From Acidimicrobiia bacterium (GTDB taxonomy: Bacteria; Actinomycetota; Acidimicrobiia; Spongiisociales; Spongiisociaceae), in the NCBI GenBank assembly GCA_009838635.1, contig VXRE01000016.1, positions 1-55,426 of the forward strand: DNA of 55,426 nucleotides, written 5' to 3'. The position numbers were made by a program, and so were the translations under genes. Positions 485 through 23,356 of the stretch are shown here, in pieces. Every line of letters begins with the position of its first letter. Position 1 is the stretch's first letter. A model generated the notes under the pieces. It searched no databases. It had not been told where the DNA came from and saw only the letters and a list, made by a program, of their open reading frames with translations.

Positions 485-1153
485 ATGTCCAGACCCCGCC
501 CGGAAGACATCCGGGCCGCCATGGCCGATTACGTGGGCAACGTCCACGCTGCCTATGCCCGGATCGCATTCACCTTTCCGCCCGCCGTACAGGGAAGTCT
601 CGAGCTGCTGACCAACCCGTTCACGGTGGTGGCCGCCGGGGCGCGCAACCTGCACGTGGTCGCCACGGGGGACCGGCTCGCCGCACCGCGGGGCCCGGAG
701 GTATCGGCCGATTTCGAACAGGACGGCATGGCCTGGACGCTCCGGTTTCTGGATCCGGTCGTGCTTCCGGCTCTCGGGACCGCTGAGGCCGGAGACCGGC
801 CCGATCCCGGCGCGGTGAGGAGGGTGGTCGGGATAGGTAGGCACCACTACCACCTGGTGGTGCGCCCCGGGTCGGACCTCACGGCCCACCACGCGACGCA
901 TGCCGGCACCGGCCTGGCCAACGCCCATCTCGCCGCCGCCCGTGACTACGAGTCCATCCGCGCCCACGCCTCGGGCGATCCGGGGCTGGTCGACGAACTG
1001 GCGGCAGCCGACGCGGCCGGACTGACCCGGGCGCATGGGCTGGTGGCCCTCGCCCTGGTTCCGTGGAGCGAACCGGTGAAGGATTCGGTGGCCACCGGCG
1101 ACCGCACGAAAGTCCGTAGGGCCGTGCTGGCGGCACTGAGAGGATCCGGATGA
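485..1153 (+). CDS. hypothetical protein, translationally coupled to the IclR regulator
   Basis: 222-aa ORF with high GC3. Its stop overlaps the IclR start (ATGA at 1150-1153). I recognise no family motif. Confidence 0.55.
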   Translation: MSRPRPEDIRAAMADYVGNVHAAYARIAFTFPPAVQGSLELLTNPFTVVAAGARNLHVVATGDRLAAPRGPEVSADFEQDGMAWTLRFLDPVVLPALGTAEAGDRPDPGAVRRVVGIGRHHYHLVVRPGSDLTAHHATHAGTGLANAHLAAARDYESIRAHASGDPGLVDELAAADAAGLTRAHGLVALALVPWSEPVKDSVATGDRTKVRRAVLAALRGSG

Positions 1154-1911
1154 GCGGCCGCACCCTGTCCTCGGTCCGCAACGCCGCCCGGGCATTGAAG
1201 GAGTTCTCCGCGGAACGCCCCGAGATCGGCGTCTCGGAACTGTCCAGGCGCCTCGACCTCGGCAAGTCCACGGCGCACCGCCTGCTCACCACGCTCACCG
1301 AGGAGCACCTGCTGGTGAAGAACCCCGACACCGGTCGCTACCGGCTGGGCCTGGCCATGTACGACCTGGGCAACACCGCCGTCACGGGCCTCAACCTGCA
1401 CGCTGCGCTGGCCCCCCCAATGAACTGGCTGCAGGACGTGACCGGCGGAACCGTGCATGCCGGCGTGCTCGACCTCCGCGAGGTGATCTACATCGAGCGC
1501 CTCGACTCCCCTCACATGCTGCGCCTGTTCATAGAGGTGGGACGGCGCCAACCGGCCCACTCCACCAGCACCGGCAAATGCCTGCTCGCCCACCTCGACG
1601 ACACGACGCTCGACCGGATCCTGGATGGCTGGAAACTGGAGTCGAAGACCGTCCACACCATCACCGACATCGCCACGCTCCGCGGGCAACTGGCGGAGAT
1701 CCGTCGCCTCGGCTACGCCTGCAATCTCGAGGAGTCGGAGTTGGGGGTCATCTCGGTTTCGGCCCCGATCCGCGACCGGAGCCGTACCGTGGTCGCGGCC
1801 GTGTCGGTAGCCGGGCCTAAGTCACGTCTGGAGCCGGAGATGCTGGCCCTCACCCAGTCGGTCCTCGAAGCCGCCGCGGTCGTCTCACACCAGTTGGGCT
1901 ACCGCAGGTGA
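1150..1911 (+). CDS. IclR family transcriptional regulator
   Basis: The N-terminal winged HTH (VSELSRRLDLGKSTAHRLLTTLTEEHLL), the C-terminal effector-domain pattern and the ~250 aa length are typical of IclR. Confidence 0.9.
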   Translation: MSGRTLSSVRNAARALKEFSAERPEIGVSELSRRLDLGKSTAHRLLTTLTEEHLLVKNPDTGRYRLGLAMYDLGNTAVTGLNLHAALAPPMNWLQDVTGGTVHAGVLDLREVIYIERLDSPHMLRLFIEVGRRQPAHSTSTGKCLLAHLDDTTLDRILDGWKLESKTVHTITDIATLRGQLAEIRRLGYACNLEESELGVISVSAPIRDRSRTVVAAVSVAGPKSRLEPEMLALTQSVLEAAAVVSHQLGYRR

Positions 1912-2024
1912 CGGCCTCTCCGGACCTTGCGGCCGATGCTCACGGCGGATTCCATCCCTGCCGGGAATCCAAACTTGACTTGATATAGTGGTTATACCTC
2001 CCCTATCGCTTCGGAGGTAGGGTC

Positions 2025-2057
2025 GAGACCGCCCGGTTCGGGCGGTCTCTGTCTTTG
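2025..2057 (+). terminator. intrinsic-terminator-like hairpin downstream of the IclR gene
   Basis: Perfect 11-bp inverted repeat GAGACCGCCCG (2025-2035) / CGGGCGGTCTC (2039-2049), followed by TGTCTTTG. It is preceded by a second 7-bp hairpin, TACCTCC (1995-2001) / GGAGGTA (2013-2019). Confidence 0.5.
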
Positions 2058-2134
2058 CGAGGTGCACCCTGTTGATCACCAACCTATACGTAGAAGGCTG
2101 TGGGCGGCCGACCCGCAGCCACCAACCGACCGTA

Positions 2135-2148
2135 CCGCATAGAAGAAC
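2135..2148 (+). promoter_or_regulatory. candidate operator, copy 2 of exact 14-mer CCGCATAGAAGAAC
   Basis: Lies 70 nt upstream of the meta-pathway operon start (2218). It is flanked by direct CCGTACC repeats (2131-2137 and 2154-2160), with the reverse complement GGTACGG at 2176-2182. Confidence 0.45.
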
Positions 2149-2217
2149 GTTGGTCCGTACCTGCCCGACGGCTTGGGTACGGTAGAGGCGTCAGGCCAGG
2201 GCAAGGACCGCAACTCA

Positions 2218-2985
2218 ATGAACACCGCTCAGCAGAGAGCCGAGGCGCTCTACGCGGCCCGCAGGAACCGGGTTCCGATCGAGCCCTTGACGGATGCCGA
2301 CCCCGGGATGACGGCCGATGACGCCTATGCCGCGCAGACCCATTTCGCTTCCAGGCTTCTGGCCGACGGCGACTCGATATCCGGCTACAAGCTCGGCCTG
2401 ACCTCCAAGGCGATGCAACAGATGATGGGCATCTCCGATCCGGACTTCGGGCCGGTCCTCCATTCCATGGTCCATGACGGGGACTTGGACGCCTCCGCCT
2501 TCATCCAGCCCAAGGTGGAGGCCGAGATCGCCCTGGTCCTGGACCGGCCTCTCAGGGGTCCCGGAGTGACAACCCTCGCGGCGGCCCGGGCCGTGGGGGG
2601 AGCGGTGGCCGCCATCGAGGTGGTGGACTCCCGGATCGTCGACTGGCGGATAAAGCTGGCCGACACCATCAGCGACCTGGCCTCCATCGGGGGCGTGGTG
2701 ATGAGCAGCCGGATCGTGCCCCTCGACTTCGACCTGCGCCTGGTGGGCATGACCTTCTCGCTCAACGGTTCGGTGGTGGCTACCGGCGCCGGCGCGGCGG
2801 CACTCGGCAACCCGCTGACCGCGCTGGCATGGCTGGCCAACACCCTCGCCCGCCACGATGTGACCCTGGAGGAGGGGATGTTCGTCATGACCGGTTCGCT
2901 GCACGCCGCGGTCGACGTGGGAGCCGGGGACGCGGTGCGGGCCGACTTCGACCGTCTGGGCCCGGTCGCTCTCAGGATGGCCTGA
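2218..2985 (+). CDS. 2-oxopent-4-enoate hydratase / 4-oxalocrotonate decarboxylase family protein (paralog 1 of 3)
   Basis: Contains [26 protein letters not shown] and the C-terminal pattern of the MhpD/XylJ/XylI fold. The internal ATG at 2218 is preferred over the track start at 2173. Confidence 0.85.
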
Positions 2986-2995
2986 CTTGAGCCGG

Positions 2996-3883
2996 ATGCG
3001 TTGCGCCATCGTCGGCAGCGGGAACATCGGCACCGACCTGCTCTACAAGCTCCAGCGTTCCGATGCCCTCGAGGCCGCTGCGATGGTCGGCATCGATCCC
3101 GACTCGGAAGGGTTGGCCAGGGCCGCGGCTGAAGGAGTCGAGGCCACCTCGGAGGGGCCTGGCTGGCTGCTCGGACACGCCAACCGCTTCGACCTGGTGT
3201 TCGAGGCCACCTCCGCCTGGGTGCATCGTGCGAACGCCCCCCGCTACCGGGAGGCAGGGCTCACGGCGATCGACCTGACCCCGGCCAAGCTGGGACCCCT
3301 CGTGGTCCCCCCGGTCAACCTCGACGCCCATCTCGACGCCCCCAACCTCAACCTCATCACCTGCGGCGGGCAGGCCACCGTCCCGATCGTGGCGGCGGTG
3401 GCAGCCGTCGTGCCCGTGCCCTACGCGGAGATCGTCTCCACGGTCTCGTCGGTGTCGGCAGGACCGGGCACCCGGCAGAACATCGACGAGTTCACCAAGA
3501 CCACCTCCGCCTCGCTGGTCGAGGTGGGTGGGGCCGACCACGGCAAGGCCATCATGATCCTCAATCCGGCCGAGCCTCCCATCCTGATGCGCAACACCGT
3601 CTTCTGCGCCCTGGGTGACGGGTACGACCGGGACGAGGTGGCCGACTCGATCACCGAGATGGTCCGCATCGTGGCATCTTACGTCCCCGGGTACCGGCTC
3701 AAGGCGGAGCCGGTGTTCGACGAGGACCTGTTCCGTACTCCCGGAGGGGATGTGAAGGCCCGTGTGGTGGTGCTTCTCGAAGTGGAGGGCGCAGCCGACT
3801 ACCTGCCCCCCTACGCGGGCAACCTCGACATCATGACCGCCTCGGCAGTGCGGGTGGCCGAGGCCGTGGCGGCCGCCCGATGA
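2996..3883 (+). CDS. acetaldehyde dehydrogenase (acetylating), DmpF/MhpF type
   Basis: [19 protein letters not shown] Rossmann N-terminus, [12 protein letters not shown] active-site Cys region and ~295 aa length. It sits immediately upstream of the aldolase partner. Confidence 0.9.
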
Positions 3884-4908
3884 CCGCCGCCTTCCGCCTC
3901 ACCGACTCCACCCTGCGCGACGGCTCGCACGCGGTGGCCCACCAGCTCACCGAGGATCAGGTCCGGCGGGTGGTGGCCGGCCTGGACGCGGCCGGGGTGC
4001 CCGTTATCGAGGTCACCCACGGCGACGGCCTGGGCGGTTCCTCCTTCAACTACGGGTTCTCCCACACCAACGAGATGAACCTGATCAGGACGGCCGTCGA
4101 GGCGGCGGTCGATTCCAAGATCGCGGTGCTGATGCTCCCGGGGATCGGGGTGAAGGACGACCTGCGTCGGGTCGCGGGGATGGGCGTCCGGGTTGCCCGC
4201 GTCGCCACCCATTGCACCGAGGCCGACATCTCCGAGCAGCACATCGCTCTGGCCAAGGAGCTGGGCATGGAGGCGGTGGGGTTTCTGATGATGTCCCACA
4301 TGATCGAACCGGAGGCGCTGCTCCACCAGGCGCGGCTCATGGAGTCGTACGGGGCGGACGTGGTCTACACGGTCGACTCGGCCGGGGCGATGACCATCGA
4401 CGACGCCCGCCGCCGGGTGGCCGCCCTCAAGGACGGCCTGTCATGCCAGGTGGGAATCCACGCCCACAACAACCTGTCCCTGGCAGTCGCCAACTCGCTG
4501 GCCGCCCTCGAGGAAGGGGTGGACCAGATCGACGGGTGCATGACCGGTCTGGGCGCCGGGGCCGGGAACTGCCCCACGGAGATCCTGGTGGCGGCCTGCG
4601 AGAAGACCGGCTGGGAGACCGGCATCGATCCGATCTCCCTCATCGAGGTGGCCGACCGGGCGGTGCGGCCCATCCGTCCCGAGCAGGGAGTCATCGACGG
4701 TGACGGGCTGCTGCTGGGCTACGCAGGCGTCTACGGGTCGTTCCTGCTCCACGCCAAGCGGGCCGCCGAGAGGTACGGGGTGCCCACGAGGGACATCCTG
4801 CTGGAGCTGGGGGAGCGGAGAGTGGTGGGAGGCCAGGAGGACATGATCATCGACGTGGCGATGGAGCTGCAGCGCCGGGCTGCGGCTGTGCAGCCCGCCG
4901 TAGCGTGA
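3880..4908 (+). CDS. dmpG: 4-hydroxy-2-oxovalerate aldolase
   Basis: [13 protein letters not shown] motif, [16 protein letters not shown] motif and ~340 aa length. There is a 4-nt overlap with the preceding dehydrogenase. Confidence 0.9.
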
Positions 4909-5708
4909 GAGGAGTGGCCATGGGTGAGCAACAATCTCCGGGCGATCTGGTGGAAGGGTTCGCGGCCCGGCTGGCGGAGGCGGTAGAGAGCCGGACCGCC
5001 ATCAGTTCCCTGACCGGCGAGCGCGAGTTCACCGTCGACGCCGCCTACGACATCCAGGACGCGGCGCTGGCCCGCGCCGTAGCCGGTGGCGAGACCATCG
5101 TCGCCGCCAAGCTTGGGTTGACCAGCCGGGCCAAGCAGGAGCAGATGGGGGTGTCGGAAGCCCTGTACGGGTGGTTGACCGACCGGCACCGCCTGGACCC
5201 CGGACAAGCCCTGGACAGCGGCCGGCTCATCCAGCCCCGCGCCGAGCCGGAGATCGCCCTAATCACCTCGCGCGACCTCGAAGGACCGGTGGGGCTCCAC
5301 GACGTCCTCGCCGCCACCGCGGCCGTGGCGCCGGCGCTCGACATTCTCGACTCCCGCTTCGCCGGCTACTCGTTCACCCTGGCCGACGTGGTGGCCGACA
5401 ACTGCAGCGCCGGCGCCTTCCTGGTGGGGAACCCCGTACCCCTCGGGAGCATCGACCTGTCATTGGTGGGATGCGTGTTCGAGAAGAAAGGCGAGCTGGT
5501 GGGGACCGCCGCCGGAGCCGCCGTGCTGGGGCATCCGGCCGCGGCGGTCGCCTGGTTCGTGCGGAAGCTGGCCGAGCGGGGCAAGGGTCTGCCCGCCGGT
5601 TCCCTGGTCCTGCCCGGAGCGTTGACCGGCGCGGTCCCGATCGGCCCCGGGGACTCGGTGGTCGCATCCTTCGACCGGATCGGCTCGGTCGGGCTGTCCG
5701 TGGCATGA
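4905..5708 (+). CDS. 2-oxopent-4-enoate hydratase / 4-oxalocrotonate decarboxylase family protein (paralog 2 of 3)
   Basis: Contains [28 protein letters not shown]. The GTGA overlap with the aldolase stop supports coupling. An alternative ATG lies at 4920. Confidence 0.8.
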
Positions 5709-6508
5709 GGAGTGCCGCGCCGCCGCCTCTCGACCAGGAGACCATCTCGGAACTGGCCGGCCGCCTCGACGAGGCACGCCGGTCCCGGGCACCCACCACC
5801 CGGCTGACCGACGATCATCCCGGACTCACCGAAGCCGATGCCTACGCCGTCGCCGACCACGGGGTCGCCCTGCGCTTGGCCGCTGGCGAGCGGGTGGTGG
5901 GCGCCAAGCTCGGGTTCACCTCGGCAGCCATGCGGCAGGCCATGGGCGTCGACTCGCCCAACTACGGATGGCTCACCGACTCGATGATCGTCTCGGACGG
6001 GCAGGTGTCGCTGGGCGAGTTGATCCACCCCAAGGCCGAACCGGAGATCGCCTTCGTGCTCGGCGAGGACCTGGAGGGCGCCGCGGTGTCGGCCCAGGAC
6101 GTCCTGTCCGCCACCGCCTACGTGATGCCGGTCATCGAGGTGGTCGACTCCAGGTTCGCCGGCTTCCGGTTCCGGGAACTCGACAACACCTCCGACAACT
6201 CGTCCGCCGGGATGGTGGTGCTGGGCAGGCGGGCTACTAGGCCGGCTTTCGACCTGTCCAGGGTGGGAGTAGTGGTCACGGTGAACGGGGAGCTGTTCCA
6301 GACGTCGTCCGGCGCGGCCGCTCTCGGCCATCCGGCGGCCAGCGTCGCCTGGCTGGTGCGGCGGTTGGCCCGGTCGGGTCGAGGGTTGGAGGCCGGCCAT
6401 CTGATCATCTCCGGCGGCCTCACGGGTCCGGTCGACCTCCTACCCGGCACGACCGTCTTCGTCGAGATAGATCGCCTGGGCAGTGCTTCGATGCGGGTCC
6501 ATGAGTAG
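5705..6508 (+). CDS. 2-oxopent-4-enoate hydratase / 4-oxalocrotonate decarboxylase family protein (paralog 3 of 3)
   Basis: The C-terminal 268 codons of track ORF 5171..6508 read MRSAAPP...VGAKLGFTSAAMRQAMGVDSPNYGWLTD. The ATG at 5705 forms an ATGA overlap with the stop of paralog 2. The upstream part of the track ORF is Arg/Pro/Gly-rich out-of-frame read-through over paralog 2. Confidence 0.8.
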   Translation: MRSAAPPPLDQETISELAGRLDEARRSRAPTTRLTDDHPGLTEADAYAVADHGVALRLAAGERVVGAKLGFTSAAMRQAMGVDSPNYGWLTDSMIVSDGQVSLGELIHPKAEPEIAFVLGEDLEGAAVSAQDVLSATAYVMPVIEVVDSRFAGFRFRELDNTSDNSSAGMVVLGRRATRPAFDLSRVGVVVTVNGELFQTSSGAAALGHPAASVAWLVRRLARSGRGLEAGHLIISGGLTGPVDLLPGTTVFVEIDRLGSASMRVHE

Positions 6509-6536
6509 TCAGCGGTAACAGCAGAGAGGAGTCGTC

Positions 6537-6767
6537 ATGCCGATAGTCACCGTCAACCTGATGGAAGGGCGCTCGCCGGAGCAGATCGAGAACATGATCG
6601 CCGAAGTCTCCGACGCCCTGGTAAGGAGCCTCGACGCTCCCATCGAGACCGTCCGGATCATGGTCAACGAGATGGCGCCGCACGGCTTCGGCATCGCCGG
6701 GCGACCCGCCCGGGTGGTGATGGCCGAACGGGAGGCGGCAGCCGCGCAGAGAGAGGGAAACGCATGA
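6537..6767 (+). CDS. 4-oxalocrotonate tautomerase family protein
   Basis: Starts MPIVTVNLMEGRS, giving the catalytic Pro-1 after Met removal. Its 76 aa includes a short C-terminal tail. The pathway context fits. Confidence 0.85.
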   Translation: MPIVTVNLMEGRSPEQIENMIAEVSDALVRSLDAPIETVRIMVNEMAPHGFGIAGRPARVVMAEREAAAAQREGNA

Positions 6768-8215
6768 TCACGCTGCGGAACTTCATCGGGGGCCGGTTCG
6801 AGGACCCGTCCTCCGGCGAGACGTTCGAGTCGGTGAGCCCCATCGACAACGCCCCGATCGCCACCGTGGCCAGGGGGAACGCCGAGGACGTGGACCGGGC
6901 GGTCGGAGCGGCCCGGGCCGCGCTGCCGGCTTGGGCATCGATGGACCCCGCCGAGCGCCGCCAGGCCCTGTACCGGGTGGCAGAGGGGATCGAGGCCCGC
7001 CTCGACGAGCTGGCCGAGTGGGAAGTCCGGGACATGGGCAAGCCGATCTCGGCCGCCCGCTCCAAGGACATTCCCCGCTCCGCCCACAACTTCCGCTTCT
7101 TCGCCGACGCCGCCGAGCATGCCCACACCAAGGCCTTCTCCAAGCCCTGGGACGGGGTCCTCACCTACGAGCTGCGGGAGCCGCTGGGTGTGGTGGGCGC
7201 CATTTCTCCCTGGAACTTCCCCCTGATGCTGCTCACCTGGAAGGTGGCGCCGGCCCTCGCCTACGGCTGCACGGTGGTGGCCAAGCCGGCCGAGCAGTCC
7301 CCGGTGACCGCCACCCTGCTGGCGGAGATCTGCCGGGACGCCGGCCTGCCCGACGGGGTGTTCAACCTGGTCCACGGCTTCGGGCCGGACGAGGCCGGCG
7401 AGGCCCTGGTCAGGCATCCCGATGTGGACGGGATCACCTTCACCGGGGAGTCGGCCACCGGCAAGGCCATCATGGCGGCCGCGGCGCCGAGCCTGAAGAA
7501 GCTTTCGTTCGAGTTGGGCGGCAACTCGCCCAACATCGTCTGCGCCGATGCCGACCTGGACAAGGCCGTGGCCGGATCGCTCCGGGGCATCTTCACTAAC
7601 CAGGGTGAGGTGTGCCTGGCCGGAGCCCGCCTGCTCGTCCAGCGTCCCGTGTACGACGAGTTCGTGGCCCGGATGGTGGACGGCGCCGAGCGGTACGTGG
7701 TGGGCAACCCGCTCGATCCCGCCACCGGCATGGGCCCGCTGGTCACCCGGGAGCACATGGAGAAGGTGCTGTCCTACATCGACCTGGCCACCGACGAAGG
7801 GGCCAAGCTGATGACCGGCGGCCACCGGATTACCGACGGCGCCCTGGCGAGCGGGAACTATGTGGCGCCGACCATCTTCGCCGATGCCGACAACCACATG
7901 CGGTCCTGCCAGGACGAGATCTTCGGACCGGTCGAGATGATCATCCCCTTCGACGAGGTCGACGAGGCGATCGAGATGGCCAACGACACCCGCTACGGGC
8001 TGGCGGCGATGGTGTGGACCACCAACGTCAACACCGCCCACAAGGTCTCCCGAGAGGTGCGGGCCGGCACGATGTGGGTGAACTGTTTCTTCGTGCGCGA
8101 CCTACGGGCGCCCTTCGGCGGCTACGGGGACTCCGGCGTCGGCCGGGAGGGGGGCGAGTACAGCTACGAGTTCTTCAGCGAATCCAAGGCTGTGGTGATG
8201 AAGCTGGACGGATAG
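6764..8215 (+). CDS. NAD-dependent aldehyde dehydrogenase, probable 2-hydroxymuconic semialdehyde dehydrogenase
   Basis: ALDH motifs are present: WNFPL, FTGESATGK, ELGGNSP and EEIFGPV-like DEIFGPV. There is an ATGA overlap with the tautomerase. The specific function is inferred from operon context. Confidence 0.85.
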   Translation: MITLRNFIGGRFEDPSSGETFESVSPIDNAPIATVARGNAEDVDRAVGAARAALPAWASMDPAERRQALYRVAEGIEARLDELAEWEVRDMGKPISAARSKDIPRSAHNFRFFADAAEHAHTKAFSKPWDGVLTYELREPLGVVGAISPWNFPLMLLTWKVAPALAYGCTVVAKPAEQSPVTATLLAEICRDAGLPDGVFNLVHGFGPDEAGEALVRHPDVDGITFTGESATGKAIMAAAAPSLKKLSFELGGNSPNIVCADADLDKAVAGSLRGIFTNQGEVCLAGARLLVQRPVYDEFVARMVDGAERYVVGNPLDPATGMGPLVTREHMEKVLSYIDLATDEGAKLMTGGHRITDGALASGNYVAPTIFADADNHMRSCQDEIFGPVEMIIPFDEVDEAIEMANDTRYGLAAMVWTTNVNTAHKVSREVRAGTMWVNCFFVRDLRAPFGGYGDSGVGREGGEYSYEFFSESKAVVMKLDG

Positions 8216-17261: not shown

Positions 17262-18947
17262 TTAGGTCCGGTAGAGGCGGTGGTAGGCGGCGAACATGGC
17301 TTCGGGGTCGGTCTTCGCAACCAGCACGCTGACGCCGGGTCGCGACCTTGCCCTTCGCAGGGCTTCCACCATGTCGGTGGGCTCGATACCTTCGGCCATC
17401 ACGCCGAAGCCGCCGGCCACGGCCACCAGGTCGTGGTCATGGGGGGTGACGAAGAGTTCCCGCGCCTGCGCGTAGGCGCCCTCTCCGCCGGACTCCCGGA
17501 GGGATCGGAGGTAGGGAAGCATCTCGAATATGGCGCCTCCCCCGTTGTCGAGCACGACTATCGACAGGTCCACGCCCAGCGCTCGGGCTGTGGACAGCGA
17601 TCCGGCATCGTGGAGGAAGGTGAGATCCCCCACCAGAGCGGTGACCCGCTGTCCGAGTCCCAGGGCCGCGCCGGCTGCCGACGCCAGCGCACCGTCGATC
17701 CCGCAAGCACCCCGGTTGCCGAACACGGCCGCGCCGCAGCCCGGCTCCAGCATCGCGTTCACATGGCGCACCGGCATGCTCGAACCCGCCCAGACCAGGG
17801 CCTCGTTGTCGAGCACGTCCGCTGTCAGGGCCAGCTCGGTGTCGGGGTGGTGGGTGCGCTCGTAGCACCGCCGCTCGAGGACCCCGAGCTCTGCGGATCG
17901 CCAGGCACGGGTCCAGGCGCCGTCCAGCGGTGAGGGCGACACCCGCTCCAGGAGCGGTGCGATCGGATCGCGCAGGATGGCTTCCGGACCGGCTGCCATC
18001 CACCGGAAGTCCGGATCCAGGACGACCTCGGGTGCTCGGAGCCCTTCCAGCCAGTTCTGGGTGATCGTGCCCGTGGGCATGCCGCCGATTCGGATTACCG
18101 CGTCAGGGGTCTGCAGGGCTGAGAAGCTCCGGTCCCCGACCAGCACGTCACCGGTGGTCACCAGGTTCTCACCGCCGCGGCTTCGCAGTCCCGACATCCC
18201 GTCGGCGAGGATCGGCCATCCGGACCGCGCCGCCAACCGGAGTACGGCGTCCCCCTCGGCCTGGTCGGTCCGTCTGGGGCCCGCCACGATCACGCCCTCA
18301 GCGGCCCGGTCCATGAACCCCTGCAGCGTCTCCACGGACGGCCCGAGCACCCCCTCGTCCTGGGATTCGGGGAGCGACATCTCGAACGATTGTCCGGTGT
18401 CGCGCCGCTCCGGGGGCTCCAGCGGCTTGTCGAAGGGGACGTTCAGATGAACCGGACCGGCGTTGGGCGGGTAGGCGGCCCCCAGTACGCGCAACACCTC
18501 ACCGGCCACCCACTCGGGATCGCATTCGTGCGCCACCGCAAGGTTTGCGGAGGCGCGCACCGCCGAGCCGTAGAGCCCGATCTGGTTGATGGTCTGGGGA
18601 GCGTCCCGATCCAGGAAACCGGGCGGGCGGTCGGCGGTGACGACCACCAGCGGCACCCGACCCCGATCGGCTTCCACCATGGCCGGCAGGTAGTTGGCAG
18701 CCGCCGAGCCGGAGGTGCAGACCAAGGCGGCCGGCCTCCCGGTGGTTCTGGCCGATCCCAGGGCCGTGAAACCGGCGGAGCGCTCATCGAGCACCACGTC
18801 GGTGGGCGGGCCACTGTCGCTCACCGCCAAGACCAGCGGCGTGGAACGGGAGCCCGGAGAGATGATCACCCGGGCCACGCCCCCCTCGGCGAGGGCGGCA
18901 GCGATGGTGTCGGCGGTGGCGTAGGCTCGCCGCCGGTGATCGGTCAT
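17262..18947 (-). CDS. menD: 2-succinyl-5-enolpyruvyl-6-hydroxy-3-cyclohexene-1-carboxylate synthase
   Basis: MTDHRRRAYATADTIAAAL..ISPGSRSTPL..DERSAGFTALG matches the ThDP-enzyme pattern of MenD. The ATG at 18947 forms an ATGA overlap with the menF stop. The longer 901-aa track ORF is read-through. Confidence 0.9.
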   Translation of the reverse strand: MTDHRRRAYATADTIAAALAEGGVARVIISPGSRSTPLVLAVSDSGPPTDVVLDERSAGFTALGSARTTGRPAALVCTSGSAAANYLPAMVEADRGRVPLVVVTADRPPGFLDRDAPQTINQIGLYGSAVRASANLAVAHECDPEWVAGEVLRVLGAAYPPNAGPVHLNVPFDKPLEPPERRDTGQSFEMSLPESQDEGVLGPSVETLQGFMDRAAEGVIVAGPRRTDQAEGDAVLRLAARSGWPILADGMSGLRSRGGENLVTTGDVLVGDRSFSALQTPDAVIRIGGMPTGTITQNWLEGLRAPEVVLDPDFRWMAAGPEAILRDPIAPLLERVSPSPLDGAWTRAWRSAELGVLERRCYERTHHPDTELALTADVLDNEALVWAGSSMPVRHVNAMLEPGCGAAVFGNRGACGIDGALASAAGAALGLGQRVTALVGDLTFLHDAGSLSTARALGVDLSIVVLDNGGGAIFEMLPYLRSLRESGGEGAYAQARELFVTPHDHDLVAVAGGFGVMAEGIEPTDMVEALRRARSRPGVSVLVAKTDPEAMFAAYHRLYRT

Positions 18948-20320
18948 ACCGGAGCGAGAGACGGGAGGAGCGCTCCCAGCTTCAGATCGGTCTCCAGGAG
19001 TTCCTTCTCCGGTTGCGATGCCGAGACGATACCTGCGCCCGCGAAGAGGCTGGTCCGGTTGCCCTCGATCAGGCAGGACCGCAGGGCGGTATGGAACTCG
19101 CCGTTCCCGGACAGGTCGCAATAGCCCACCGGCCCGGCATACCAACCCCGGTCGAAGGGCTCGTGGGCCGTGATCCAGTTCGTGGCCCGGTCCCGAGGCA
19201 GGCCTCCCACCGCCGGGGTGGGATGGAGGGATCCCACCACGTCGAGCACGCCGGTTCCGACCGGCGCCACCGCGCTGATCGGCGTGGCTAGATGGAGGAT
19301 GCCCGGCAACTCGAGAACTCCGGTCCGTTCCGGGGGATCCAGCGCGAAGCCCCGGTCCGACAGCCGGCGCATGAGCTCGGAGCGGACGTGGGCGTGCTCC
19401 TCGAGTTCCTTCGAATCGCTCAGGAGAAGGCGCGCCAGGCGCCTGTCCTCCGACCCGGACGACCCCCTCGGCGCGGTTCCGGCCAGGGCGAGCGTCCTGA
19501 CCGTCAACCCTTCGACCCGGGCCAGCAACTCGGGAGTGGCGCCGCAGAACACGGCGCCTCCGGGTCGGGCAAAGGCGAAGATGACACAACCGCCGTGGAT
19601 CCGGCGCAGAGCGGCCAGGAAAGGCCCGAGGTCCGGCCGGTGATCGACATCCAGCCTGCGGGCCAGGGTCACCTTCTTCAGGTCTCCGTTCCGGATCAAC
19701 CGGATCGCATCCCCTGCGCCGGACAGGTAGACCGGATCGCTCAGGTCGATGCTGTCGGCCCGCCGGGCGTCCGTCACCCCGGGGGCGACCTGCCCCGGCA
19801 CCATCCGGCGCGCGGACCGGATCCGCCCCATCAACGCGCTCGCGACCGCGGCGGGATCGGCGCCGGCGAGAACCTCGGTTGCCGCCATCCACACCCGGTT
19901 GCCGGGGTCCCGCCGGATGTAGGCCAGCTCGGGAACCACGAGCCGCCCGGCCGGGAATCCCGGCCAAGCGCCGCCCGGGGCGAACGAGAAGCCCCCGATC
20001 AGGAGCGGGGCCCGTTCCGCCCCGTCGAGCGCCGCCTGGTGGGTTCTGCTCGCGAGGTCGCGCACGGCGGCCGAGGCGGTCCCGAACCGTGCGGCGTCCG
20101 CCGGGGACCGGATGGTGTGCGCCTCGCCGGAGGCCGCCATGGCGAAGTCCCGGTCCGGCGATTCCCAGTAGGCGAAGGGCGGACCTGTCGCCAAGGCGAT
20201 GGCGAGCGCATCGCTCTCCTGCGCGGGCGCGGCCAGCGTAACTATCGAGGGACGCCCCGAGACGGCGGCGCGGGCAGCGGCGCGGGCGACCCGTTGCTCC
20301 AGCCGCCTGCGCTCGGTCAT
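18944..20320 (-). CDS. menF: isochorismate synthase
   Basis: Chorismate-binding C-terminal pattern (FCGATPELL..., GTAPRG, HPTPAVGG, GWYAGPVG). The ATG at 20320 forms an ATGA overlap with the MerR stop. Confidence 0.85.
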   Translation of the reverse strand: MTERRRLEQRVARAAARAAVSGRPSIVTLAAPAQESDALAIALATGPPFAYWESPDRDFAMAASGEAHTIRSPADAARFGTASAAVRDLASRTHQAALDGAERAPLLIGGFSFAPGGAWPGFPAGRLVVPELAYIRRDPGNRVWMAATEVLAGADPAAVASALMGRIRSARRMVPGQVAPGVTDARRADSIDLSDPVYLSGAGDAIRLIRNGDLKKVTLARRLDVDHRPDLGPFLAALRRIHGGCVIFAFARPGGAVFCGATPELLARVEGLTVRTLALAGTAPRGSSGSEDRRLARLLLSDSKELEEHAHVRSELMRRLSDRGFALDPPERTGVLELPGILHLATPISAVAPVGTGVLDVVGSLHPTPAVGGLPRDRATNWITAHEPFDRGWYAGPVGYCDLSGNGEFHTALRSCLIEGNRTSLFAGAGIVSASQPEKELLETDLKLGALLPSLAPV

Positions 20321-21066
20321 CGCCACTCGGTGTGGATCACCATCTGACGTTCCTCGATGTCCTCCAGGGCCTTGACCAGGGCTGCGTCTCTCGAGTCGTC
20401 CAGCCGTTCCTTCACCCGGGTGATCACGGTGTGGTGAAAATGCTGCGCGACCAGACGGGTGACGTGTACCACGAGAGTCCGGAACAGCTCGGCCAGCTCG
20501 ACGGGCCGGTCGGGCTGGTTGTCGCGGATGTGTTCATTGAACAGGTCGATGGCCGCGTCCACCACGCTCTCCACGGATGTGGCGTGCCGGGCCGCCAGGG
20601 CCGCCAGCTTGTCGAGGGGGAACCCCGCCTCCAGCAGCGACATGCCGGCAGCCAGCATCGGCGCCACATCGGGAGCGAATCGCTCCTCCTCGCCGTTGCC
20701 GAGCGGCTGGATGAGGCCGGCAGACACCGCGATGTCCACCAGATGGGGTGGTAGCCCGGAGCGCTCGGCAAGCTCGGCCCGCCCCAGGCCGACAGTGGCC
20801 CCGGCCAGCGACTCCAGCAGCGGATGCCCCGATTCGTCCAGCAGGCGCTTGATCTGAGCCAGGGTGAAGCCGTCGTCGGCGAGGGCCCGGATGGTCCGCA
20901 ACCGGGTCAGGTGGGCGCTCCGGTACACCACCGAGCGGCCATCCCGGTCGGTGGGGGGTAGGAGGCCCATCCCCTGGTAGTAGCGGATGGTGTCGACCCC
21001 GACCCCGGCCTCGGCGGCCAGGTGCTCCACCCGATATGCCGTAGCGTCGCCAGCCATAGCACCCAC
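20317..21066 (-). CDS. MerR family transcriptional regulator with ~170-aa C-terminal domain of unknown function
   Basis: N-terminal MerR HTH reads YRVEHLAAEAGVGVDTIRYYQGMGLLPP...LTRLRTIRALADDGFTLAQIKRLL. An alternative start is at 21057. Confidence 0.85.
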   Translation of the reverse strand: MGAMAGDATAYRVEHLAAEAGVGVDTIRYYQGMGLLPPTDRDGRSVVYRSAHLTRLRTIRALADDGFTLAQIKRLLDESGHPLLESLAGATVGLGRAELAERSGLPPHLVDIAVSAGLIQPLGNGEEERFAPDVAPMLAAGMSLLEAGFPLDKLAALAARHATSVESVVDAAIDLFNEHIRDNQPDRPVELAELFRTLVVHVTRLVAQHFHHTVITRVKERLDDSRDAALVKALEDIEERQMVIHTEWR

Positions 21067-21104: not shown

Positions 21105-22910
21105 TCAGTCGCGTATTCCCAGCGACTCCTCGGCCTCGTCGAGCCGCTGGCCACCCAGGAGAACGGCCGCGAACAGGTCTCCGTAGCGGGAGACCCGGTC
21201 CCAGATCGTGGCGATGGTGAAGCTCGTGGGATCGATGGACTCCAACTCGTCCCACCGGAGCGGTGTGGAGACCGGCGCTCCGGGGCGGGGCCGAGTCGAG
21301 TAGGCGGCCGCGATGGTGGCGCCGGCCCGGTTCTGCCCGGAGTCGACATACACCTTGCCGGCACGGTTGGGGATGTGGCGATCCATGGTCACGTTCTCGG
21401 GGTTGGCGGTGGCCAGCAGGTGGCCGAGCCGCTGCACGAACGTCCGGACCCGGACGTAGTCGTGGACCGGGTCGAGGGGTACGTAGACGTGGATGCCCCT
21501 CGATCCGGAGGTCTTCGGATATCCCTTCAGCCTCAGGTGGGCGAGGGCTTCCCGGAGGAGGCCGGCCACGGCCACAACCTGGTCCCAGCTGGAGCCTGAC
21601 GCGGGGTCGAGGTCGAACACCGCGAAGTCCGGGGCATGGAGTGACGGGACCCTCGAGAGCCAGGGATGGATCTCGATGCAACCCATGTTGGCCAGCCACA
21701 TGAGGGACTCGGGCCGGTCGGCGGTCACGTAGTCGATCACCGCACCCCGATGGGCCGAGTCGATCGGGACCAGCGGCATCCAGGCCGGCTGGTGGCCGGG
21801 GGCCTGTTTCTCGTAGAAGGAGGCGGCCTCGGCGCCGTCGGGGAATCGGGCCATCACGATCGCCCGGTCCTCCAGGTGGGGAAGCAGGAGCGGCGCGACG
21901 GAGGCGTAGTAGGAGATCAGATCGCCCTTGGTGTAGCCGTCGGGAAAGAACGGCTTGTCGAGGTTGGAGAGCCGCAGGGGGTGGTCGTAGCCGGCCAGGG
22001 CGTAGCCCTGTCTGGTCTCCGAGGCCCTCGGCACGGTCGGGAAGGAGACGCGACCGCTGGCGGCGGGCCGGCCGGGTGTCTCGGGCTTGGTCACGGACGC
22101 CAGCGCGCCCTCGATCTCCGTCCGGATCCTGCGATGGGACGGCTCGTCGCGGGACTCGGAGATGACGGTCATCCGGAATCCGGCCCGGTGCACCGCCTCG
22201 ACCAGCGGCGTGACCCGGAGGTCGCCCTGGCCGTAGGGGAGGTGGCGGATCTCGCCTGTCTCGTCGTACAGGACATCGCTGAACTGGGTGTGGAGCGGAT
22301 CGATCTTCCACCCGGCGAAGTTCTCCCGCAGGAACCCGAGCACCGCCTCGAACGCCTCGACCGACCGGAGGCCTCCGCCGCTGATGGCGTGGACGTGTGC
22401 CCAGTCGATGACCGGCCGCACGAACGGATACTCCGCCGCCAGGAGGGCGATGTCGCCCAGGCTTCCCATATGTGAGGCCCGTCCGGTGGTTTCGAGGCCC
22501 AGACCGACCCCGAGGTCGGAAACCTTGGTCGCCAGATGATCGAGATGGCGCCGGATGGTGTCCATCAGGAAGCCGGGCTCCTCCTTGCGCCGCCCGCCCG
22601 GATGGGCCACCACCACCCGGGCGTCCATCTCGGCGGCCAGCTTCATCGTGTGCTCGATCGCGCCCCGGCACTTGCGGGCCCGGTCCTCTTCGGTGATGGT
22701 GAGAACAGCGAAGTAGGGGGCGTGGATGGAGAGCGGGATCCCCCGCTTGGCAGCCTCCTTCCCGAAGGAGCTGCAGCGCCGCTCGTTCCACGGGAAGGAC
22801 CTCGTGAACGCCAGCTCGAAGGCCTGGTAGCCCTGCTCCAACAGCCCGTCCAGGAACTCCTCATCCGGTGTGGCCGGCGGAGGTATCCCCGAGTATCCGA
22901 ACGTGATCAC
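21105..22910 (-). CDS. fusion protein: xylose-isomerase/Endo-IV-like TIM barrel (N-terminal) + LigD-type primase-polymerase domain (C-terminal)
   Basis: Single 601-codon ORF. The N-terminal ~285 aa carry metal-ligand-like blocks IHAPY, AHPGG, LETTG, DWAHVH, HTQFSD, IRH and ISES. The C-terminal ~270 aa carry LigD PolDom blocks LSNLDKPFFP, FAVFDLDP, KTSGSRGIHVYVPL and KVYVDSGQN. Confidence 0.8.
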   Translation of the reverse strand: MITFGYSGIPPPATPDEEFLDGLLEQGYQAFELAFTRSFPWNERRCSSFGKEAAKRGIPLSIHAPYFAVLTITEEDRARKCRGAIEHTMKLAAEMDARVVVAHPGGRRKEEPGFLMDTIRRHLDHLATKVSDLGVGLGLETTGRASHMGSLGDIALLAAEYPFVRPVIDWAHVHAISGGGLRSVEAFEAVLGFLRENFAGWKIDPLHTQFSDVLYDETGEIRHLPYGQGDLRVTPLVEAVHRAGFRMTVISESRDEPSHRRIRTEIEGALASVTKPETPGRPAASGRVSFPTVPRASETRQGYALAGYDHPLRLSNLDKPFFPDGYTKGDLISYYASVAPLLLPHLEDRAIVMARFPDGAEAASFYEKQAPGHQPAWMPLVPIDSAHRGAVIDYVTADRPESLMWLANMGCIEIHPWLSRVPSLHAPDFAVFDLDPASGSSWDQVVAVAGLLREALAHLRLKGYPKTSGSRGIHVYVPLDPVHDYVRVRTFVQRLGHLLATANPENVTMDRHIPNRAGKVYVDSGQNRAGATIAAAYSTRPRPGAPVSTPLRWDELESIDPTSFTIATIWDRVSRYGDLFAAVLLGGQRLDEAEESLGIRD

Positions 22911-22986: not shown

Positions 22987-23059
22987 GGGCCTGTAGCTCA
23001 GTAGGCAGAGCAGCGGACTTTTAATCCGAAGGTCGAGGGTTCGACTCCCTCCGGGCCCA
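22987..23059 (+). tRNA. tRNA-Lys (anticodon UUU)
   Basis: 73-nt cloverleaf folded by hand. Acceptor stem GGGCCTG/CGGGCCC, D stem GCTC/GAGC, anticodon loop CTTTTAA, T stem GAGGG/CCCTC, T loop TTCGACT, discriminator A. No encoded CCA. Confidence 0.9.
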
Positions 23060-23356
23060 CGATGTTTCCATCCTGGGGAGCGGTCCCGGGTCTCGAGCAA
23101 CTCCGAGAGAACCAGCAGTCTCGAGGAATGCCGGTTATCACTCGACAACCGGATTGTGCGCGATAGGAGCATCATGACTCCCCGCACTAGCAACAGCATC
23201 CCAGCCCCACACAATTGCGCAGCATCTGAGAACGCACCGTCGGCCGCTCTCGCTGCGGCCTGATCGCCGGACGACCCGACAGGATCCCGAACGCTCATCG
23301 AGTCCGTACCGAGTTGCGACATCTGCTCTCGCGTGCTCTACGGTGGGATTTACAAA

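Follow-up and report, generated by a model that had tools for sequence, protein, structure and literature searches.

What does a LigD-type primase-polymerase do when it is joined to an end-processing module other than the one found in LigD? This question is raised by a gene in a 55,426-nucleotide stretch of DNA from an Acidimicrobiia bacterium (NCBI assembly GCA_009838635.1, contig VXRE01000016.1, positions 1 to 55,426; hereafter the window). The gene lies on the minus strand at 21105..22910, running from a GTG start at 22910 to a stop codon that ends at 21105, and its 601 codons plus stop encode a protein that fuses an endonuclease IV (Endo IV)-like triosephosphate isomerase (TIM) barrel to an archaeo-eukaryotic primase (AEP)-type polymerase domain (PolDom). 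The interpretation of the two domains, in which the fusion would be a modular repair enzyme of the AEP kind that carries another end-processing module, is well supported by sequence comparison; its function we infer from sequence, structure and analogy.

An earlier note on this DNA, made from the sequence alone, had described a single uninterrupted open reading frame (ORF) of 601 codons and had allowed for the junction being an assembly or frameshift artefact. The single ORF was confirmed, and all of the motifs quoted in that note were found in the translation. GC content at third codon positions (GC3) is 0.78-0.94 in each 50-codon block, the junction (codons 251-350) included, and this continuity gives no sign of a change of frame; the N-terminus, MITFGYSG, corresponds to MIRFGISG of homologues. 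When one genome per GTDB species was scanned, relatives of the N-terminal domain were encoded in 410 genomes. Among the best 80 loci from these 410, both domains are encoded in one uninterrupted ORF in 75 (median, 602 amino acids [aa]), closed long-read chromosomes among them, while the other five comprise four ORFs ended by contig ends and one that is frameshifted (L035). The nearest of the loci (89-94% identity) come from sponge-associated metagenome-assembled genomes (MAGs; Ca. Spongiisocius/Spongiisociaceae, RHO1/APA/SB bins), so the window very probably stems from an Acidimicrobiia symbiont of this sort, and a search with the N-terminal domain alone returned many Acidimicrobiia proteins with the PF01261+PF21686 pair, the majority ended by contig ends. 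Pairwise ratios of nonsynonymous to synonymous substitution (dN/dS) between close relatives were 0.09-0.25 in the barrel, 0.11-0.24 in the PolDom and 0.17-0.82 in the segment between them (aa 271-311), and the low values in the two domains indicate that both halves are under purifying selection.

We therefore rejected the explanation that a frameshift introduced in assembly or sequencing has merged two neighbouring genes. Truncation or a frameshift does affect several ENA metagenome homologues, and there are frameshifts in L035 and in a related set of three loci (L088-L090, described below). Against this, the identical uninterrupted ORF recurs in 75 of 80 independent genomes, closed long-read chromosomes included, GC3 is continuous over the junction and the model predicts order in the junction region, which leaves the artefact a negligible probability. 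In sponge-associated and other Acidimicrobiia, the fusion exists as a real and conserved gene. The domain pair flagged as non-standard in the earlier note is thus genuine and evolutionarily conserved, but it is not rare: at least 75 Acidimicrobiia genomes, counted at species level, have the architecture, and the proteins are already in public databases under generic or misleading names (in NCBI and JGI, 'non-homologous end-joining DNA ligase', 'TIM barrel protein' and 'LigD'), the first of which is given to proteins without a ligase domain. We found no published description of the architecture or its relatives in the literature, functional or otherwise.

The N-terminal half (aa 1-270; 22101..22910, minus strand) was assigned to an Endo IV-like TIM barrel by Pfam, AlphaFold, Foldseek, residue mapping and hhalign, in line with the xylose isomerase/Endo IV-type barrel previously proposed for residues ~1-285. 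Pfam AP_endonuc_2 (PF01261) matches aa 25-267 with 97.6 bits against a cutoff of 31.1 (E 1.2e-27), and the AlphaFold model of the domain (predicted local distance difference test [pLDDT], 94.1; predicted template-modelling score [pTM], 0.90) has the eight-fold beta/alpha pattern. In Foldseek, the best match was T. maritima Nfo (template-modelling score [TM], 0.78), E. coli Nfo reached 0.75 (root-mean-square deviations, 3.2-3.4 Å), and sugar epimerases scored lower, at 0.62-0.70. A profile of the domain family searched against the PDB retrieved MJ1311 (5.5e-11), Endo IV of M. tuberculosis (8.8e-11) and of S. aureus and T. maritima (1e-8 to 2e-8), as well as APN1 and UvdE (3e-4). Xylose isomerases were insignificant in this search (E 0.06-0.7), and D-tagatose epimerase was matched, at 4e-5, by the parent-family profile alone. 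The top NCBIfam matches are all deoxyribonuclease IV models, all of them below cutoff. The barrel therefore lies closer to Endo IV than to sugar isomerases and epimerases, and we rejected a sugar isomerase identity as the best reading on the basis of the profile scores, the lower TM values and the lack of sugar genes beside members of the family.

An exhaustive profile search gave 405 representatives of this family at E<=1e-30 and 1102 at E<=1e-10, each standing for a cluster at 50% identity; nearly all are stand-alone proteins of 265-295 aa. The profile of the stand-alone barrels aligns with the N-terminal domain of the fusion over 272 columns (hhalign probability 100%, E 4e-75), and it matches Endo IV structures in the PDB at 3e-17 to 1e-11 and MJ1311 at 7e-18. 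Their alignment (A3) displays the motifs FGPAG..HAPYYINL..FHPG..PETMGK..DFAHxHA..LHxHFS..GEKxH..ICES, and the series of invariant residues H, H, E, D, H, E, H, E is common to the stand-alone barrels and the fusion. The named members are mostly archaeal (Thermoprotei, Bathyarchaeia, Methanobacterium, Syntropharchaeia and Njordarchaeales), with Clostridia in addition, and are labelled 'deoxyribonuclease IV' or 'TIM barrel protein' in databases. By these profile comparisons, the N-terminal domain belongs to a separate, mostly archaeal and clostridial Endo IV-like family outside canonical Nfo, and the analysis points to this being a large family, of at least 405 clusters at 50% identity. The stand-alone barrels are neighboured by aroE-pepP-efp-spoIIIA or directly preceded by a class II ribonucleotide reductase gene (nrdJ), and no sugar operon was present around them in the loci examined. 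In L091/L092 (4702-7870), the barrel gene starts 11 nt downstream of the class II ribonucleotide reductase (Ribonuc_red_lgC + TSCPD), a possible operon link to DNA precursor metabolism. In L002 (2638-6851), approximately 10 tandem same-strand ORFs of 59-100 aa, without Pfam matches, lie upstream of the stand-alone barrel P0027.

To map the putative metal site, we used profile alignment to M. tuberculosis Endo IV and to E. coli Nfo, in a sequence identical to PDB 1qtw (285 residues) with its nine ligands at the published numbers, and scored invariance over 73 full-length orthologues. Eight of the nine Nfo metal ligands are matched by identical residues in the same order: H63 (Nfo H69), H103 (H109), E140 (E145), D169 (D179), H172 (H182), H207 (H216), H223 (H231) and E252 (E261). 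The ninth, D229, is unmatched and falls at I221. The ligand order proposed by eye (H/H/E/D/H/H/D-H/E) is accordingly correct at eight positions and fails at the Asp of the D-H pair, where the conserved acid, E220, comes one residue before. In the putative metal site, ten residues do not vary among the 73 orthologues (H63, H103, E140, D169, H172, H174, D212, E220, H223 and E252). Position 209 is Gln in 62 orthologues and His in 11, and the stand-alone family has His at both 207 and 209. The residues corresponding to the Nfo DNA wedge, Y66 (Nfo Y72) and F67 (Nfo L73), are similarly well kept, with Tyr at position 66 in 69 orthologues and Phe in 4, and F67 in all 73; the HAPY[FLI] motif here is the same as in the M. 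tuberculosis and S. aureus enzymes. Equivalents of H63, H103, H172 and H223 occur in Endo IV and are absent from the mononuclear E-D-H-E sugar enzymes, and retention of these four histidines argues for a multinuclear phosphoesterase site over a mononuclear site of the sugar type. As aligned, the putative metal site is a variant of that of Endo IV and not a copy of it.

The C-terminal half, in which LigD PolDom hallmarks had been noted earlier, contains a LigD-type primase-polymerase at aa 312-582 (21165..21977, minus strand), recognised by Pfam, NCBIfam and PDB profile matches, followed by a short tail (aa 583-601 + stop; 21105..21164, minus strand) with the consensus ..GGQxLxxAExxLGI and a conservation of 0.66. 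Pfam LigD_Prim-Pol (PF21686) covers aa 327-580 with 299.7 bits against a cutoff of 27.4 (E 2.4e-89; model 1-254 of 254), and the ligD_pol model TIGR02778 is passed with 248 bits against 214.7. Matches to solved polymerases of non-homologous end joining (NHEJ) and to Prim-PolC range from 1e-52 to 2e-36, the best being the Methanocella NHEJ polymerase 5dmu (1e-52), with Prim-PolC 5op0 at 2e-50 and the M. tuberculosis PolDom 2iru at 5e-40. The AEP motifs (D433-L-D435; S468-G-S-R-G-I-H474, of the form SGxxGxH; and D523) line up with those of 5dmu and 5op0, and their Asp, Gly and His positions are invariant in the 73 orthologues; by this alignment, the catalytic residues, the Asp triad among them, are intact. 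Also invariant are N316, K319 and K328, which match NPDK..TKG of 5dmu and 5op0, where published PolDom and Prim-PolC structures assign the N-terminal Asn and Lys residues to a 5'-phosphate pocket (PMC7442782).

No ligase (PF01068) or phosphoesterase (PE; PF13298) domain was detected in the protein by Pfam, and full-length LigD models are matched in their Pol part only and stay under cutoff, TIGR02776 scoring 250 bits against 373.2 (model 312-583). The short-gap specialist Prim-PolC is defined by Loop 3 (its residues 313-333; PMC7442782). The alignment to Prim-PolC stops at residue 582 of the fusion, and the 19 residues that remain leave no room for such a loop. A Prim-PolC identity was rejected, as there is neither a Loop 3 nor an adjacent LigC-type ligase; on its profile matches, the C-terminal half is a generic LigD-type PolDom.

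Between the two domains, the earlier note had seen a Pro/Ser/Thr-rich linker. This description suits a ten-residue hinge (aa 271-280; 22071..22100, minus strand; pLDDT 73), which is the sole low-confidence stretch of the model, but not most of the segment: aa 281-311 (21978..22070, minus strand) lead into the PolDom as a predicted ordered stretch (pLDDT 90-94) with beta strands at 295-299 and 302-306, and align to residues 3-20 of 5dmu. Over aa 271-311 as a whole, mean column conservation is 0.47 and selection is relaxed, as the dN/dS values above indicate. The full-length model has a pLDDT of 93.1 and a pTM of 0.83; because this pTM is high for two domains of ~300 residues each, it suggests that barrel and PolDom are docked in a defined mutual arrangement.

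The absence of Ku and ligase genes nearby, reported in the earlier note, was confirmed over the whole window. Pfam annotation of its 40 GC3-supported genes detected no Ku, ATP-dependent ligase, PE, glycosylase or other repair gene apart from the fusion itself. For comparison, we assembled 82 related loci, comprising 80 GTDB loci with flanks of up to 10 kb plus L001 and L002, and searched them and the window by tblastn with M. tuberculosis Ku (identical to PDB 8v53), a Streptomyces LigC-type ligase, two full-length LigDs and Xth (from annotated plasmids). Neither the window nor any of the 82 loci contained Ku, PE or Xth, and a ligase domain was found in a single one of the loci (L037) and not in the window.

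Proteins with the same two domain families in reverse order (Pol-TIM; 600 aa) are encoded in MAGs of other, low-GC Actinomycetota, the PolDom occupying residues 30-281 and the barrel residues 347-581. Members are P0193, P0331 and P0332 (NCBI MEW6189520.1, MDI6689058.1 and MDI6822565.1; P0331 is encoded at 10001-11803 of L087), and each domain is 36-38% identical to its counterpart in the fusion. They too are annotated in NCBI as 'non-homologous end-joining DNA ligase', though they have no ligase domain. The Pol-TIM gene lies between rplS-lepB-rnhB and dprA-xerC housekeeping genes, with rnhB 3 kb upstream, and neither Ku nor a ligase is encoded beside it at the L087 locus. The PolDom of P0193 matches stand-alone Firmicutes PolDoms best, and its barrel groups with stand-alone and fused barrels alike. 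To judge from these comparisons, the TIM/Pol pairing has been kept through rearrangement, whichever way the two orders arose. L088, L089 and L090 are three assemblies of a close relative with 96.4% DNA identity to the Pol-TIM gene and have in common a 1-nt deletion in a C5 run at ~10745 (locus coordinates), so that the gene is either truly a pseudogene or subject to a homopolymer error that recurs; the 255+345-aa 'split' that this deletion in the C-run produces was rejected as a two-gene arrangement. A further related protein, P0183, pairs a PolDom with a PE domain and has no ligase.

Our preferred account is that the fusion is a bifunctional DNA-repair enzyme that cuts or cleans a 3' end and then fills the gap, with ligation supplied in trans; on the domain and residue comparisons, we regard this as somewhat more probable than its negation. 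The barrel would act as an Endo IV-type multinuclear-metal phosphoesterase, nicking 5' of abasic sites and/or stripping 3' blocks (3'-phosphate, 3'-phosphoglycolate or 3'-unsaturated aldehyde) to leave a 3'-OH. The PolDom would then dock on the 5'-phosphate across a short gap; filling would probably be Mn-dependent and use ribonucleotides or deoxyribonucleotides (dNTPs), and a ligase from elsewhere in the genome, for example LigA or one of the LigC type, would seal the nick. The EndoIV and Prim-Pol steps of the mycobacterial LigC base-excision repair (BER) pathway would thereby be hard-wired in one polypeptide. The enzymatic activities, the substrate and the hand-off between active sites are all things that we infer.

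Several lines of evidence support this incise/clean-and-fill account: the domain identities, the intact catalytic residues, selection on both halves, and the lack of linked Ku, PE or conserved ligase genes. The reverse-order Pol-TIM proteins and the ordered inter-domain segment in a model with a pTM of 0.83 also count in its favour, as does the occurrence of stand-alone barrels in housekeeping and DNA-metabolism contexts as opposed to sugar operons. Published precedents are of the same kind. EndoIV was the best 3'-processing partner of Prim-PolC and LigC in a BER reaction reconstituted with FPG (PMC5663958), and the PHP domain of PolX gives a gap-filling polymerase AP-endonuclease, 3'-phosphatase and 3'-diesterase activity (PMC6616362). 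MJ1311 is the M. jannaschii counterpart of P. furiosus PF0258 (PfuAPE), which is 13.5% identical to Nfo and an active AP endonuclease; a paralogue without H70, H110 and E261 was inactive (Kiyonari et al., PMC2770678). An operon-level analogue of pairing the LigD polymerase with an AP endonuclease/3'-repair diesterase is provided by Dyadobacter chenhuakuii plasmid NZ_CP099631.1 (L084 3174-6674), in which xth (exodeoxyribonuclease III) follows 25 bp after a full-length ligD.

A number of observations weigh against this account. Canonical Nfo membership of the barrel was rejected, its scores being far under the curated cutoffs (21.7 bits against 129.65 for TIGR00587; 15.7-24.4 against 244-376 for PRK01060 sub-models). 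The earlier note's description of an Nfo-type enzyme thus stands insofar as the domain is Endo IV-like and retains the Endo IV-specific histidines, but not as membership of the canonical family (21.7-24.4 bits against 129-376). The relatives P0074, P0068, P0027 and P0003 likewise fall under these cutoffs, and a Firmicutes stand-alone barrel matches the nfo model at 3e-23, yet also scores under cutoff. Within the putative metal site, position 207 is His in 45 of the 73 orthologues, the present fusion included, and Gln in the other 28; the Asp229 position is Ile, and the invariant E220, which may act as a stand-in, is out of register by one residue; and the position of Nfo Arg37 is Phe (F39), with W41 falling at a conserved Trp of M. 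tuberculosis Endo IV. The closest solved structure, MJ1311 (PDB 3wqo), stands in the PDB under the label 'D-tagatose 3-epimerase-like protein', its function unknown, and our literature search found no biochemistry for members of the N-domain family. In ~490-aa sister proteins (P0145, P0149 and P0157, on contigs of up to 1.4 Mb), a PolDom that is intact and 55-57% identical is preceded by a truncated barrel remnant lacking E140, H172, H174, H207 and the E220-H223 segment, which suggests that the barrel has a non-catalytic role too or that it has decayed in this lineage. Finally, apart from the ligase of L037, no glycosylase, ligase or other BER gene is linked to the fusion in any of the 82 loci, and the docking of the two domains is predicted from pTM alone.

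These points bear differently on the other explanations that we considered. Some of them would be expected if the barrel were not a nuclease at all but an enzyme acting on a small molecule (a sugar or a phosphodiester, like the substrates of epimerases or CbiR), or mainly a scaffold for the polymerase, structural or DNA-binding: the Pfam family is common to sugar isomerases and epimerases, the epimerase-like MJ1311 is the top PDB match, Foldseek E-values are alike for epimerases and Nfo, there are weak matches to CbiR phosphodiesterase, the H207Q and D229 changes affect the ligand set, and the ~490-aa relatives have a ligand-less remnant beside an intact PolDom. This reading sits poorly with the invariance of H63, H103, H172 and H223, with TM values that favour Nfo over sugar enzymes whose sequence matches are weak or insignificant, with fusion of the barrel to a DNA polymerase in both orders, with the lack of a sugar-metabolism context beside fused and stand-alone members, and with a barrel dN/dS as low as that of the PolDom; we consider it quite unlikely. 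An accessory role in NHEJ, in which the fusion would work on double-strand breaks alongside Ku and a separate ATP-dependent ligase, both supplied in trans, and the barrel would replace PE as the 3'-end cleaner, seems to us unlikely. The PolDom is of the generic LigD/NHEJ type, with its best PDB match to 5dmu (1e-52), and the lack of Loop 3 leaves space between Loops 1 and 2 in which synapsis in trans could occur, as in Prim-PolD (PMC7442782); archaea and many bacteria encode the NHEJ modules in separate genes (PMC5663958), and P0183 pairs a PolDom with PE without a ligase. However, Ku and PE are lacking from the 55-kb window and all 82 loci, a ligase occurs in L037 only, the conserved neighbours are housekeeping genes, and Pol-TIM is likewise without Ku or ligase neighbours. 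No observation links the protein to NHEJ in particular. The suggestion that it is an alternative NHEJ or gap-repair module therefore survives in its second half, gap or BER-type repair being the better supported of the two.

Very unlikely, in our estimation, is a role in priming or damage tolerance, with the AEP domain chiefly priming, or carrying out translesion synthesis, at stalled forks or on a mobile element, and with RNA-DNA junctions or 3' ribonucleotides as targets of the barrel. The functions of AEP Prim-Pols are diverse (PMC4538821), PolDoms favour rNTPs (PMC5663958), and rnhB lies 3 kb upstream of the Pol-TIM gene. Against this, there is no variation in the 5'-phosphate pocket residues, which are typical of PolDoms that bind gaps and ends, the gene lies in the chromosome in synteny with housekeeping genes, outside any mobile element, and PADLOC returned no defence-system match for it. 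The order rplS-lepB-rnhB is a common housekeeping synteny, so its presence upstream of Pol-TIM also counts against a priming role. Taken as a whole, none of the outcomes that the earlier note named as contrary to its proposal (an N-terminal sugar isomerase or epimerase lacking the Nfo-type ligands, a misassembled junction, or a common and already functionally described architecture) was found in full.

The incise/clean-and-fill account can be carried further, to a self-contained branch of excision or single-strand-break repair in Acidimicrobiia. Rigidly docked active sites would pass the cleaned 3'-OH directly from barrel to polymerase without release of the toxic gap intermediate; the branch would be independent of Ku and of a dedicated ATP-dependent ligase and would replace Pol I or PolX together with canonical Nfo or Xth, and the existence of both domain orders would reflect repeated selection for channelling. 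This extended form is doubtful, and we offer it tentatively.

Among known systems, bacterial LigD (Pol-PE-Lig) has the same AEP domain (PF21686, TIGR02778) and likewise ties a 3'-cleaning metallo-phosphoesterase covalently to a fill-in polymerase. The fusion differs from it in lacking a ligase domain, a PE domain and a linkage to Ku, and its cleaning module has the unrelated TIM-barrel fold. The mycobacterial complex of EndoIV, Prim-PolC and LigC performs the same successive activities on a 5'-phosphorylated short gap, and the PolDom matches Prim-PolC at 2e-50 (Plocinski et al. 2017, PMC5663958; Brissett et al. 2020, PMC7442782). In contrast to the fusion, which is a single chain without Loop 3 and with no adjacent LigC gene, the parts of that complex are separate and held together via LigC; furthermore, mycobacterial Endo IV and the fusion barrel are not orthologues. 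PolX with its C-terminal PHP domain is an analogue that places a gap-filling polymerase and a multi-metal His/Asp phosphoesterase with AP-endonuclease, 3'-phosphatase, 3'-diesterase and 3'-5' exonuclease activities in one polypeptide (PMC6616362, PMC3479172). Family X and PHP are unrelated in fold and ancestry to an AEP Prim-Pol and an Endo IV-like barrel, and the likeness would be convergent. Endo IV itself (E. coli Nfo, T. maritima, M. tuberculosis End) has a common TIM barrel with the fusion (best TM, 0.78) and eight of nine ligands in the same order, while the fusion barrel falls below the Nfo cutoffs, has Asp229 replaced, Arg37 changed to Phe and His216 to Gln in 38% of orthologues, and contains the additional invariant residues H174 and D212. 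Pol-TIM, finally, has the same two domain families and a similar length (600 aa), and differs in its inverted order, low-GC lineage and genomic context.

If the preferred account is correct, the fusion would be a natural 'Rosetta-stone' protein that lends independent support to the coupling of Endo IV-type 3' processing with AEP gap filling, for which the only demonstrations so far are reconstitution and pull-downs in mycobacteria. It would also offer a one-protein system for studying the hand-off from incision to synthesis, and a convergent counterpart of PolX-PHP.

The conserved neighbours of the fusion are clade-specific housekeeping genes. Downstream in the window, on the same strand as the earlier note had stated, lies a MerR-family regulator (Rv1828/FtsR-like; 20317..21066, minus strand; Pfam MerR_1, 8e-21) with weak similarity to Rv1828_C and FtsR; the spacing is 38 bp, and no terminator-like site was found between the two genes. 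By 10 bp (20317-20326), the MerR gene runs into the start of a menF-like isochorismate synthase gene, and a menD-like thiamine pyrophosphate enzyme gene is next (17262-20326, minus strand). This MerR-menF-menD series, which can extend to a menH-like hydrolase gene, is downstream of the fusion in 15-16 of ~57 loci with a downstream flank, the window counted, and also in L001. In 28 other loci, a HisA-like gene is directly downstream instead. A functional link between the fusion and MerR is unsupported, as the series is confined to 15-16 loci and the HisA-like gene takes its place in other clades. The HisA/PriA-like isomerase (357 aa; e.g. L073 11875-12948) is encoded ~50 nt downstream on the same strand, scores 1.4e-50 with TIGR00007, which is below cutoff, and carries an extra C-terminal extension of ~110 aa that appears glyoxalase/VOC-like by eye.

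Upstream, a divergent tRNA-Lys gene (anticodon UUU; 22987-23060, plus strand) begins 77 bp from the fusion start. In L001, the fusion is immediately preceded on its upstream side by an integrase/AAA_25/HTH_17/ApeA-HEPN block, which may be an element that integrated close to the site equivalent to that of the tRNA-Lys in the window. Elsewhere in the window (1150-8215, plus strand), and unrelated to the fusion, is a meta-cleavage-type aromatic degradation cluster comprising genes for an IclR regulator, two FAA-hydrolase-family proteins, a DmpF-like acetaldehyde dehydrogenase, an HMGL/DmpG aldolase and an aldehyde dehydrogenase.

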